DNA of 51,555 nucleotides, counting the filler, from Catajapyx aquilonaris (Eukaryota): assembly GCA_000934665.2 (NCBI GenBank). It is 2 parts of 2 records of this genome, joined end to end, with 100 filler letters (N's around TTAATTAATTAA, not from the genome) between each part and the next. Parts side by side here need not be neighbours in the genome. Positions count along the whole stretch, not along the records: positions 25,829 to 51,555 come from JYFJ02005315.1; 1 more part is not named here. One strand, 5' to 3'. Positions 30,036-33,697 of this stretch are shown here, piece by piece. The notes below the pieces were generated by a model. The model worked only from the letters and a program-made list of their open reading frames with translations, was not told where the DNA came from and searched no databases. Position numbers and translations under genes: made by a program. Numbering within the stretch: the stretch's first letter is position 1; each line of letters starts with the position of its first letter.

Positions 30036-30529
30036 TTACTTCGGCTGGTTGTTCATCATGTCCGTGAAAATTTCAACTTGACTCTGCAGCATCATCGCCT
30101 TGCAAACGATGCTCGGGACGTCCGGTAGAGCGCTTGCGGAATGTTCGCTGGAGTCGTCGTCAAACAGTCCCAATTTTGTTCCCATGTCCTTCACCATTTG
30201 TTCAAGTACGCCAATGACGTCGTCCGGCTCGCACTTGTACGTCCCGGCGATTTCCTTCAGTACGTCCGCGTACACATTTGTCTCCACCTGTTCCCATCCC
30301 GTGTCGACCCGCTCCTTCTTAACGGGAACGGCCGTCACAGTCCTTTGGGTCGCCTGGTCTAAATCGTGAAGCGGCTTGAACGCCGCATCTGCAAAACCTG
30401 GAATTTTCAGCACAATACCAACATGTCCGCTTGAAACTTACCATGCCGCAACTCCGTCTCATATGATTTGATCGACTCCGGCTTCATGGGCGGTCGACTG
30501 CCGGAAGATTTGGCACCATCATGCGGCAT
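30036..30529 (-). CDS. Unrecognised small protein A, 146 aa (paralog of B and C)
   Basis: Exons 30442-30529 and 30036-30388; 53-nt GTAAGT..TTGCAG intron preserves frame; shares VY.D.L.EIA...KC.P..VI.VLE..VK with protein B. Confidence 0.8.
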
Positions 30530-30661
30530 TGTCCGAATAAAAACCAACCGCTACTGTTAGCAAGTCGCCTCGGCAATGACACAACAAACTTTGATACACA
30601 AAATTTTAATTTCATCGCCTAACCCTGCGTTCACTACAAATTTAATCACATAGATGCGGTT

Positions 30662-31446
30662 TTAACCAGAGGATTTCTTGGTGGCATTGTGTACGAGAGT
30701 GAGCGATTCCACTCTGTACTTGAGCGTGAGTGCCCTGCACAGCAAGTTCCGCATGGCCTCCTTCGGTTCCAGCAGTCCGCTCCGTACGCCGTAAAACGAC
30801 GGGGTTGCCTCGTCGTCTGTCTTCTTCATGAACGCCACATGTTCGCTGGACTCCAGCTCCTTCACTTTAGCCTCCAGGACGTCAATGACTTCCTCCGGCT
30901 TGCACTTGTGCTTCTTTGCAATTTCATTGAGGATGTCCAGGTACACGATACCTTTCGGGCGGTCCTTCAGCATCGCGTCGATGACCGCCGCGCTCTCCTT
31001 CGCATTGGGAGGCGCGTCGGACTGGGCGGGTTCCGAATCGTCCGGCAGGTAAAGGCCATCCAAACTAAGCCGCTCTGGAAGCGACGGCGGCTCGCATTCC
31101 TCAAGGCCGACGACGAACGGCTCTTGGTTGTCATGCCCGTAGAACGTAATGCCCTCGAGCCCTGAAACTACAGCCGCATTGTAGCTACGTTTTAACCGCA
31201 ATGACAAGTGTACGTACCGCGATGAACCTGATACACTTTCCCTGATGCGGACGATCGCTTCGCCGCAGTCGGCTTCATCAGCAACGCCTGGCGGCCGTCA
31301 TCGGACGCCTTCTTGAGTGCCGCATCGTTTGACCCCCATGGTCTGTAGCGCGGATTGAACGGGCGGTTCCCGGTGGGTCGCACCGTTGCGCCTTCAGCCG
31401 CATCGCCCTTGCTCTTGGCTTTTCCTGTCTGGTTATTAACCGGCAT
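30662..31446 (-). CDS. Unrecognised small protein B, ~242 aa (alternative in-frame ATG at 31530)
   Basis: Exons 31218-31446 and 30662-31161; 56-nt GTACGT..TTTCAG intron preserves frame; basic low-complexity N-terminus and a helical C-terminal domain homologous to protein A. Confidence 0.8.
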
Positions 31447-31578
31447 CTTTGAGCGTGGAAAATACCCTCCTGTCGTTATTAGAACAGATTCCCCCCCGTT
31501 GTTGACACTGATGTCACCCTGGCGACTCATAACGACAGAGGTTGCCACAATAAAGTTTTTATCCAAGTGTACTACAGT

Positions 31579-32097
31579 TTAATAACACATTTTGAGGCAC
31601 GACTTGAGCTGCTGTTCGGCCTTCCTTGCCTGGGTGGCTCCCACTTCTGCGGTGCGCAGTGCGGTTTTCAGCAACAGAGCCGTGTTGTCCAAGCTTCGGA
31701 GTGCACTGTCGGCGGCATCGGACGGGACAGGAAGGGTTGGGAGATCTAACGGCGGAAACACCGGCCGGAGTTCCACCAAGGCCGTCCTGCGCTCCACCAA
31801 AGCCTGAAGGCGTCCCACAACCTGCCGGACGACCCAGTGTCCTCTAGCCCCGATGATCACATGCGGATCAAGCGGTAGACGCAACATGCTGCCGGTCCTC
31901 GCAGCGACTTGGTTGAACAGTATGACCTGCACCTCCATCTGCGCCTTCAGCTGCTTCACCTTCAACGTCCGTTCCTTCAGCGCCATCCGCACATCCTTCG
32001 CTACGTCCCGGATGGCACGGCACAGCTTGTCTGCAACAGACAGAAATTAAATAGTGTCCGCAGCGAAAAGGGATGAGCACCCACCTTTTTGGGACAT
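31579..32097 (-). CDS. Unrecognised small coiled-coil protein C, 154 aa
   Basis: Micro-exon 32085-32097 (ATG TCC CAA AAA G), 54-nt GTGGGT..TTGCAG intron, exon 31579-32030, giving MSQKDKLCRAIRDVAKDVRMALKER...KMCY*. Confidence 0.7.
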
Positions 32098-32107
32098 CGT
32101 TTGGAAC

Positions 32108-33697
32108 TCATATGTCGCCAAGCAACGGCGGCTTTGTTGACAGAAGACACAACAGGGCGACCAGTAACGACGCGCCGCACACGCTCCCCATGTTCCATCG
32201 GTAGTAATGCTTGCACGGGAGCACGTCGTCCAAACTGAAAACATCGCAACGATTAAATGCGGTTTGTTTTTTTCCGGCATGAATTTACCTGCATGGACAC
32301 AGCTCTTGAATCAGCAGTATGACGATCCCGCAGGACAGTTTGTCCGTTAGACTCATCGCTCCGTACACAAACGCGCCGCAGTTGGCGTCAGACCCGATGA
32401 GATCAGCCGTGATGCCCAAGCTTGTCACCAGAACAGTCGTTGCGGCCACACCTAACAGCGCGACTGTCCCATACACGCCGTACAACCGGTACGAGTCGCC
32501 TTCGCCAAACGCAATCGCAACACATCCTGCGATTCCCAGCACGCTTCCGACGCCATACGCAATCTGAAATGTCTGCAATTACTTCCTTATTCCAGCGATT
32601 CTAAACGGTGCGTACCTTTCTCCCGGCGGATTTGTTCAGCTTCCGGACGGCAAACGAGGCGACGAACCCTGATAGAAACATGACCAAGGGCAGCACCGCA
32701 ATGCTGTGCTTCGGAAGCCCCAACGACGCTTGAATATACAACGGAAACAACACCTGGGTAACGTTGATGAACAACCGGGTTCCCATGTAAACAGCAGCGA
32801 CCTGATAAAACCGAGGCATCTTCAGCCATTTCCTGAGACACTCCCAGACCGACTTCGGACCTTCTCTCTTCCGGCTTAGCGCGTTTTCCGGTATGTTCAG
32901 ATGGAAGAGGACGGAAAAGAACAAGCCGGCTCCCAATGCGATGAAGGCCACATCCTGCAACGGACAATTGTTAGAGAGCCAGTTGTTGCGATTGTGTACG
33001 ACTAACCCTGAACTGGTCCGCATCCTCCTTCCCGATGGTTTCGCTTTGGCCTTCGTTGGCATCCAGAAGCAGCCAGGTTGTAACGTACACAGCGATGTTG
33101 GCCAGTACGGTGAAAGCGTACCTGCAAATTTAGCAGCTACAATTGCGGATACAAATTGCGGACATGCGCATTTACCTGAGAGCGGCCAGTTGCGTTCGTA
33201 TGTCCTCACTCGGAGTCATGTCCGTCATTAGCGACAAGTGCGCTATTTGCATCGAAGCCCATCCGAACTGAAAGAGGATTGTGAACGCGCTGTAGTAGAG
33301 CATTTGAGCCGACCTGGAACTATCGCTGCAATTAACGCAGGGCATGAAGATGAACGGAAATGATCCCATCACGCACACCATTCCTGCGAAATAAGAGTCG
33401 TACGTAACATCCCGCCGACATTTTAACAATCCCGTAATTACCTATCAAGTGCCATGCTTTTCTCTTTCCGTACCGACACAGCCAGGTCTGCCGATCCAAC
33501 AGCACGCCAACGACAGGCGTCGCAAGCCCGTCCGCAACCTGTCCTACCAACATGATTATACCGGAAAAGCTGCTTCCGTACCGCAACACTTGTTGGAAGA
33601 ACACCAGAAGGTACGTGAACCACATTGCGGCGCAGAGGTCGTTCAGAACATGTCCAACCGCAAAAGCCAGCTTCAGACGCCACGAAAGAGCAGCCAC
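32108..33697 (-). CDS. MFSD12: MFS transporter MFSD12-like, paralog 3, ~440 aa
   Basis: Exons 33442-33697, 33176-33383, 33007-33121, 32616-32954, 32289-32563 (or 32572), 32108-32234. Motifs [69 protein letters not shown]. Confidence 0.92.

Follow-up and report, generated by a model that had tools for sequence, protein, structure and literature searches.

A compact same-strand gene cluster in Catajapyx aquilonaris with a possible dicistronic unit made of an MFSD12-like transporter gene and a small neighbouring gene

In the genome of Catajapyx aquilonaris (NCBI GenBank assembly GCA_000934665.2), an intact transporter gene of the MFS_2/MFSD12 type, here called MFSD12-3, stops 10 nt ahead of the start codon of a small gene, C, and two further small genes, B and A, follow on the same strand. 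The cluster was studied within a window of 51,555 nt, i.e. the whole stretch of DNA analysed, in which two parts of the assembly are joined by filler. Positions 25,829 to 51,555 of the window come from the record JYFJ02005315.1, and all coordinates are window positions. According to the explanation that is tentatively favoured, and to which slightly less than an even chance is given, MFSD12-3 and C would form a dicistronic unit, or a unit in which C is nested in the 3′ untranslated region (3′UTR) of the transporter gene, and B and A would be compact separate genes.

This explanation is carried by the organization of the junction between MFSD12-3 and C. On the minus strand, the TGA codon of MFSD12-3 (32110-32108) is followed by the spacer GTTCCAAACG (32107-32098) and then by the ATG codon of gene C (32097-32095). 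These coordinates were read directly and agree with those given by an earlier, sequence-only reading of this DNA. The TAA codon of gene C (31581-31579) is 48 nt away from the first possible ATG of gene B (31530) and 132 nt away from the second one (31446). Another 132 nt separate the TAA of gene B (30664-30662) from the ATG of gene A (30529), the stop codon of which is located at 30038-30036. These distances, too, had been correctly claimed, and the four genes are tightly packed on one strand (Table 1). Scripted joining of the seven exons of MFSD12-3 yields 445 codons with a sole, terminal stop. The intact open reading frame (ORF) thus argues that the TGA at 32110-32108 is the real end of the gene. 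With only 10 nt, the spacer has no room for a promoter or for the 3′ end of an RNA. In order to locate possible poly(A) signals, the minus strand was scanned for AATAAA and for every hexamer differing from it at one position. None of these hexamers occurs in the 524 nt from 32107 to 31584. The first one after the MFSD12-3 stop codon is the ATTAAA that overlaps the stop codon of gene C, so that the RNA of MFSD12-3 must at the least enter C and probably traverses it. A mature mRNA common to MFSD12-3 and C would be the outcome. The ATTAAA at 31583 is followed by GATAAA at 31563 and then by the T/GT-rich sequence TTTATTGTGG.

At the two other junctions, the situation is different. The lack of a poly(A) signal and of space for a promoter, found between MFSD12-3 and C, is found neither between C and B nor between B and A (ATTAAA at 31583, 30646, and 30610). 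Hence, the earlier proposal of a di- or polycistronic transcript is plausible for MFSD12-3 and C, and is weaker for a unit of four genes, in view of the poly(A) signals that the small genes possess. As expected of a dicistronic locus, one strand indeed carries separate ORFs, and each of them shows a coding signal.

Table 1. Coordinates of the genes, exons, introns, and putative signals of the cluster
Feature	Position	Strand	Remarks
MFSD12-3, intact MFS_2/MFSD12-like transporter	32108..33775	-	445 codons, stop TGA 32110-32108
MFSD12-3 exons 1-4	33775-33768, 33707-33442, 33383-33176, 33121-33007	-	joined ORF; exon 1 and its intron putative
MFSD12-3 exons 5-7	32954-32616, 32563-32289, 32234-32108	-	joined ORF
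MFSD12-3/C spacer	32098..32107	-	10 nt, GTTCCAAACG, read directly
Gene C	31579..32097	-	154 codons, spliced translation open
Gene C exon 1	32097-32085	-	13 nt, ATG plus 10 nt, phase 1
Gene C putative intron	32084-32031	-	54 nt, donor AAG/GTGGGT, acceptor TTGCAG
Gene C exon 2	32030-31579	-	stop TAA 31581-31579
Gene C alternative start	ATG 31986	-	135 codons, intron not required
ATTAAA, putative poly(A) signal	31578..31583	-	overlaps gene C TAA; first hexamer after MFSD12-3 stop
Gene B	30662..31530	-	272 codons from first ATG
Gene B exon 1	31530 (or 31446) to 31218	-	two candidate start ATGs
Gene B intron	31217-31168	-	50 nt, spliced RNA contig
Gene B exon 2	31167-30662	-	codon log-likelihood ratio +0.41
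Two ATTAAA in B-A spacer	30646-30641 and 30610-30605	-	hexamer scan
Initiator-like TCATTG in B-A spacer	30579	-	
Gene A	30036..30529	-	146 codons, stop 30038-30036
Gene A exon 1	30529-30442	-	
Gene A putative intron	30441-30389	-	53 nt
Gene A exon 2	30388-30036	-	codon log-likelihood ratio +0.40
TATAAA	29971..29976	-	within end of convergent MRPS30 coding region

Considering these properties, the following scenario may be envisaged. The compact cluster would not behave as one operon but would give rise to three RNA 3′ ends. An RNA of MFSD12-3 would cross the spacer, the 13-nt exon and the 54-nt intron of gene C, then the body of C, and would end after the ATTAAA overlapping the gene C stop codon. 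The product would be either a dicistronic mRNA or an mRNA carrying gene C nested in the transporter 3′UTR. Translation of C from this long RNA would need reinitiation or internal entry. In addition, gene C would probably be expressed from a shorter RNA starting in the last exon or the last intron of MFSD12-3. B and A would use their own poly(A) signals and, probably, very short promoters located in, or just upstream of, the 132-nt spacers, and some transcription would read through from C into B across the spacer between them. In such a scenario, the intron and the start codon of gene C, the sites of polyadenylation, the promoters, and the mode of translation of C are all putative.

Transcript data come from one public run, the kind of which is not on record, in the form of assembled contigs; four of them were obtained in the range 29950-33750. 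The run is taken as RNA because one contig skips 50 nt having GT..AG ends on the minus strand. This contig joins 30619-31167 to 31218-31242 (joint 31167/31218; read on the plus strand, the excised segment has CT..AC ends). Gene B is therefore expressed and spliced. Another contig extends without a break from 31861 to 31419, i.e. from the coding region of gene C into that of gene B, and is collinear with the genome. It follows that the spacer between C and B is transcribed, although such an assembled contig cannot show one single molecule. A third contig covers 32359-32565, in exon 6 of MFSD12-3. Gene A (30077-30584) and most of MFSD12-3 are left uncovered, and no conclusion is drawn from these gaps.

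Several points speak against a unit of MFSD12-3 and C followed by separate B and A genes. Firstly, shuffled versions of the 524-nt stretch, which is GC-rich coding sequence, are devoid of AATAAA-like hexamers 39% of the time. The earlier statement that no poly(A) signal lies between MFSD12-3 and C stands, down to 31584, but chance can readily produce this. Secondly, many insect mRNAs use no recognisable poly(A) hexamer, and reinitiation after an ORF as long as 445 codons is generally inefficient. Thirdly, the contigs leave positions 31862-32358, including the junction of MFSD12-3 and C, uncovered, a gap from which nothing is concluded in either direction. Fourthly, the unbroken contig from C to B does not fit the simplest view, where C ends and then B starts. 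Finally, the splice-motif filter by which the gene C intron is selected retains 15 sites in total over both strands of the window, as compared with 15.9 expected in shuffled sequences. Splice motifs alone prove nothing for the gene C intron, the support of which lies only in its position, its length, and its frame.

In a second model, the units would be separate and overlapping. Gene C would be driven by a promoter lying inside the final exon or the final intron of MFSD12-3, MFSD12-3 would end early within C at a non-canonical site, and four monocistronic mRNAs would be made from very compact promoters. Such packing would be in line with the rest of the locus, where 219 nt separate MFSD12-3 from the preceding paralog and where spacers of 132 nt occur, and each small gene has a poly(A)-like signal of its own. 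Moreover, the acceptor of the last MFSD12-3 exon holds a strict initiator-like motif, TCAGTT (32238). However, this motif is expected from a YCAG/T acceptor, it is not followed by any match resembling a downstream promoter element, and an RNA starting there would carry ATGs at 32198, 32191, and 32111 ahead of that of gene C. No AATAAA-like hexamer would serve MFSD12-3 before 31583. In favour of the model, overlap of the 3′UTR and 5′UTR of same-strand neighbours is described as ordinary in the FlyBase account (PMC4528330). On the whole, separate overlapping units are considered unlikely, while being the foremost of the alternatives.

The structure of gene C itself has to be discussed. Its putative 54-nt intron keeps the frame opened at ATG 32097, carries TTAAT 19 nt ahead of the acceptor AG, and is within the range of 50-60 nt covered by the eight other introns of the locus (six of MFSD12-3 and one of gene A, all seven inferred, plus that of gene B, confirmed by RNA). 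A shorter gene C may be imagined, in which 32084-32031 would not be spliced, ATG 32097 would be a chance codon within the 3′UTR of MFSD12-3 or the 5′UTR of gene C, and translation would start at ATG 31986, 121 nt after the MFSD12-3 stop codon, to give 135 codons. Indeed, the ORF 31579..31986 can stand alone, no spliced contig spans the intron (contigs are lacking in this region), and its combination of donor and acceptor motifs is equally common in shuffled sequence. On another hand, the intron fits in its length, in its reading frame, and in its TTAAT branch motif. The 42 nt that splicing adds ahead of ATG 31986 look coding, with a codon log-likelihood ratio (LLR) of +0.20 and a GC content at third codon positions (GC3) of 0.79, and they encode the beginning of a helix predicted with confidence. 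The context of ATG 32097 is AACGATG, with A at -3, as at the putative start of MFSD12-3; in front of ATG 31986, this position is occupied by C. The shorter version is therefore rather improbable. In the AlphaFold model of the longer protein, a helical hairpin is predicted (helices 2-45 and 103-148; 45 residues with a predicted local distance difference test, pLDDT, of at least 90). Its first helix begins upstream of the internal methionine, the pLDDT being 92 over residues 1-10. A Foldseek search of the Protein Data Bank (PDB) with this model gave no match at E ≤0.001.

The sequence-only reading had also remarked that the gene C frame is open through the whole last exon of MFSD12-3. This is correct, the corresponding ORF (32047..32280) having 77 codons. 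Within the exon, however, the LLR per codon is -0.387 in this frame, versus +0.487 in the MFSD12 frame. Coding use of the gene C frame across the exon is ruled out by this negative score, and its openness is due to chance. An in-frame fusion of MFSD12-3 and C by means of an alternative donor was also rejected. Once the GT abutting the acceptor of the exon itself (last nucleotide 32236) is set aside, the sole phase-compatible GT in the exon is at 32149 (TGT/GTCTTC), which is a poor donor. The RNA of the junction (32180-32020) is not predicted to be structured (fold z -0.60), and comparison of 28000-36000 with Rfam gave no match at E ≤0.1.

The six introns of MFSD12-3 measure 52-60 nt and all have GT..AG ends. 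Two of the three exons tested matched the Pfam family MFS_2 (PF13347), with 28.0 and 30.5 bits for a cut-off of 27. A simple window scan of the protein delineates 10 hydrophobic segments, two of them overlapping, in keeping with a multi-pass membrane protein of the MFS_2 type, for which about 450-480 residues would be expected; a search of the PDB gave no match. The name MFSD12 is that used by the earlier reader and it agrees with what we take to be the N-terminal motif of this transporter. In the first large exon, the frame holds no ATG. The ATG at 33699-33697, formerly taken as the upper edge of the block, is not suitable, being out of frame and followed by a stop after 8 codons. An intact ORF is restored if an 8-nt coding micro-exon, ATGAGCGG (33775-33768), and a 60-nt intron are assumed, a start that is putative and deduced from sequence inspection. 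The start context of this micro-exon, AACGATG, is identical to that of gene C, where the start codon would also be carried by a micro-exon (13 nt). Two further paralogs are located upstream of MFSD12-3 on the same strand of the window, so that three MFSD12-like genes form a tandem array (33994-41957, minus strand). Paralogs 1 and 2 differ from MFSD12-3 in having their ATG inside the first large exon, and the C-terminal tail of paralog 2 exceeds that of MFSD12-3 by about 30 residues. In contrast to MFSD12-3, paralog 2 has a poly(A)-like hexamer close by, its stop codon (33996-33994) preceding AATAAG by 10 nt and the start of MFSD12-3 by 219 nt. In a published study, no MFSD12 orthologue is found in D. 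melanogaster (PMC7358622), so that a fly counterpart of the MFSD12-3/C pair is not expected.

Coding potential was evaluated by codon log-likelihood, trained on the homology-supported exons of the window. When all 89 stop-to-stop ORFs of at least 100 codons in the window are ranked in this way, A is 4th, C is 7th, and B is 10th, amid known exons. For C, B, and A, no frame except the proposed one has a positive LLR, and GC3 in the proposed frames is 0.71-0.74 (0.72 for C). In the case of gene C exon 2, the LLR is +0.34, while the two remaining frames have -0.43 and -0.39. Genes A, B, and C thus look coding. In gene B, the 84 nt between the two candidate starts (31530-31447) have an LLR of -0.02 and a GC content that is flat across codon positions. 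ATG 31446 may therefore be the real start of gene B, and the N-terminus would then resemble that of the gene A product. For the intron of gene B, two acceptors are available at a distance of six bases, TAG/31167 and CAG/31161, both in frame. The contig uses TAG, and the second site may provide an alternative adding or removing two codons.

Genes A and B are paralogs, as indicated by BLASTP (32% identity over 96 residues, E 2e-10). Their alignment contains 38 invariant columns, a conserved helical core is common to both proteins, and each gene has a phase-1 intron. A four-helix arrangement is predicted for the shared core with modest confidence (mean pLDDT 55). Comparison of the C-terminal model of gene B (mean pLDDT 55) by VIA-align retrieved only generic helical matches (best Z 6.1). 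Overall, the three small proteins are predicted to be helical and belong to no recognisable family. In Pfam, the only hit for A, B, and C was HTH_26 (E 0.033), below its cut-off, and among PDB sequences the best E was 0.75, which is no match. Their search in the ESM Atlas gave no usable match (best 0.80), and scans of metagenome contigs gave zero hits. Zero hits were also obtained in searches for homologous proteins with exon 2 of gene B and exon 2 of gene C, as well as with a profile of A and B compared to 1.84 billion representatives. It should be reminded that an MFSD12 exon returned nothing from the same homology collections either, which evidently lack animal proteins. Since even this conserved exon is unmatched, the blanks obtained for A, B, and C say nothing on their novelty or orphan status.

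Each of the three small genes has a poly(A)-like hexamer at its stop codon or within about 60 nt of it. For gene A, the TATAAA at 29976 is the sole AATAAA-like hexamer in the 139 nt scanned downstream from the stop codon. In the spacer between B and A, the ATTAAA motifs may serve as the poly(A) signal of B and as a TATA-like element of A, with an accompanying putative initiator. The contig that covers the end of gene B stops at 30619, 22 nt after the ATTAAA at 30646-30641, and the contig of MRPS30, a gene on the plus strand, ends at 30018, 11 nt after AATAAA; contig ends are no proof of RNA ends. MRPS30 (stop codon 29994-29996, AATAAA 30002-30007) is convergent with gene A and their 3′ ends overlap, so that the two mRNAs should have an antisense overlap of some tens of bases. 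After both C and B (31569-31583 and 30630-30646, minus strand), ATTAAA is followed within 1-2 nt by TGTAGT. Similarity of the C-B spacer to the B-A spacer is at chance level, the local score of 19 being reached by 91 of 1000 shuffles.

Arrangements of this kind have been catalogued in Drosophila. Dicistronic or polycistronic units represent 2.5% of the protein-coding gene models, and FlyBase lists 159 dicistronic pairs, 7 tricistronic sets, and 2 tetracistronic sets (PMC4528330, Crosby et al. 2015). In the light of these figures, the opinion that the present locus would be unusual was overstated. In the same text, stop-to-start distances at purely polycistronic loci range from -34 to 319 nt; 114 of the 159 dicistronic pairs have alternative monocistronic transcripts and 45 are exclusively dicistronic (PMC4528330). 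Small proteins are over-represented, similar (duplicated) genes are found in 18% of the polycistronic loci, and the mechanism by which downstream ORFs are translated is given as mostly unknown (PMC4528330). The cluster of C. aquilonaris resembles these loci in its same-strand ORFs a few to a few hundred bases apart, in its small proteins, and in the presence of similar genes (PMC4528330). It differs from them in that the spanning mRNA is here an inferred one, in that the upstream cistron is a long one, of 445 codons, encoding a membrane transporter, and in that the downstream ORF would begin in a separate exon of 13 nt, ahead of an intron.

Two other Drosophila loci may be compared. At the operon-like locus CheB42a/llz (ppk25), less than 100 bp separate a gene encoding a channel from one of unknown function, and the two products interact (PMC2827562, Ben-Shahar et al. 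2010). As in the MFSD12-3/C pair, a gene for membrane transport or a channel stands next to a gene of unknown function on one strand, and co-transcription of the CheB42a/llz genes has been claimed; there, the small gene comes first, whereas here it comes second, and cleavage into two mRNAs was postulated there (PMC2827562). The Gr64a-f cluster of sugar receptors is a same-strand run including paralogs, for which a polycistronic RNA is reported (PMC2827562). All its members are paralogous receptors, whereas paralogy in the present cluster is limited to A and B, both with a poly(A)-like signal of their own.

A further model is that of a single precursor containing MFSD12-3, C, B, and A, which would be translated as a whole, or cut by trans-splicing or by a cleavage like that proposed for CheB42a/llz. 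The common strand, the short spacers (10, 48 or 132, and 132 nt), and the contig bridging C and B would be compatible with it, as would the two tetracistronic sets known from FlyBase (PMC4528330, as above). The sequence-only reading had suggested that genes A and B are preceded by branch points plus AG at which trans-splicing could occur. Sites made of CTAAY plus AG do exist upstream of B (31482) and of A (30560), with CTAAT and AG 24 nt before the second ATG of B and CTAAC and AG 22-25 nt before the ATG of A. For trans-splicing itself, no support is found. At the proposed acceptor of gene A, the branch motif is merely 3-6 nt away from the AG. There is no excess of CTAAY, with 5 occurrences in 3.95 kb versus about 8 by a uniform-composition estimate. 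None of the four contigs, admittedly few, has a loose end, i.e. a non-genomic leader, and none starts at a spacer acceptor. Furthermore, poly(A)-like signals are present after C and after B, and eight ATGs lie between the start of gene C and that of gene B. With so many ATGs, leaky scanning up to B on a common RNA is not credible. According to a comparative study, insects lack spliced-leader (SL) trans-splicing, which does occur in copepods and amphipods, where operons are unreported (PMC7986045). The short intercistronic spacers on one strand recall SL operons of the nematode type (PMC7986045). Here, by difference, the four contigs carry no spliced leader, and no convincing U-rich or acceptor architecture precedes B or A. 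A precursor of four genes is therefore highly improbable.

One may also imagine that the 13-nt exon of gene C is a shared first exon, spliced either to exon 2 of C or to an AG at 31471-31470 before B, thereby producing, from one promoter, C and a B protein with a different N-terminus. Joining of the donor at 32084 to an exon starting at 31469 keeps the frame of gene B, though such a match has one chance in three of occurring. CTAAT lies 10 nt before the AG, comparable to CTAAA found 9 nt before the AG of an MFSD12-3 intron. However, the sole contig that covers this AG shows no splice joint and runs collinearly with the genome, and the same mechanism fails for gene A, as it would meet an in-frame TAG and a wrong phase. 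Among all the models discussed, this one is given the least credit.

Apart from the cluster, the window contains a coding-like ORF of 559 codons upstream of MRPS30 (26438-28114, plus strand) and a kinase-like gene that includes runs rich in His, Pro, and Gln (46228-48052, minus strand). An N in the sequence is located within ORFs at 50513-50955.

Under the favoured explanation, of a unit of MFSD12-3 and C with separate B and A genes, the locus is a probable further case of a kind of dicistronic locus already known in animals. It may be tempting to go further and to consider one mRNA on which ribosomes would restart on C 10 nt past the transporter ORF, the C protein being a helical-hairpin accessory or regulatory subunit of a lysosomal-type transporter paralog, in the way that CheB42a serves a DEG/ENaC channel, and the B and A products being lineage-specific partners. 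Such a full picture is very unlikely. For the moment, the locus is mainly a matter of annotation, concerning the starts, the introns, and the transcript ends of four genes, which automatic pipelines probably merge, truncate, or miss. The three small proteins, without a match to a Pfam family or to a solved structure, may be lineage-specific. If the shared transcript is real, it would add to the animal dicistronic loci a case where the long ORF comes first and where an intron is present, and it would offer a lead on the partners of an MFSD12-type transporter.

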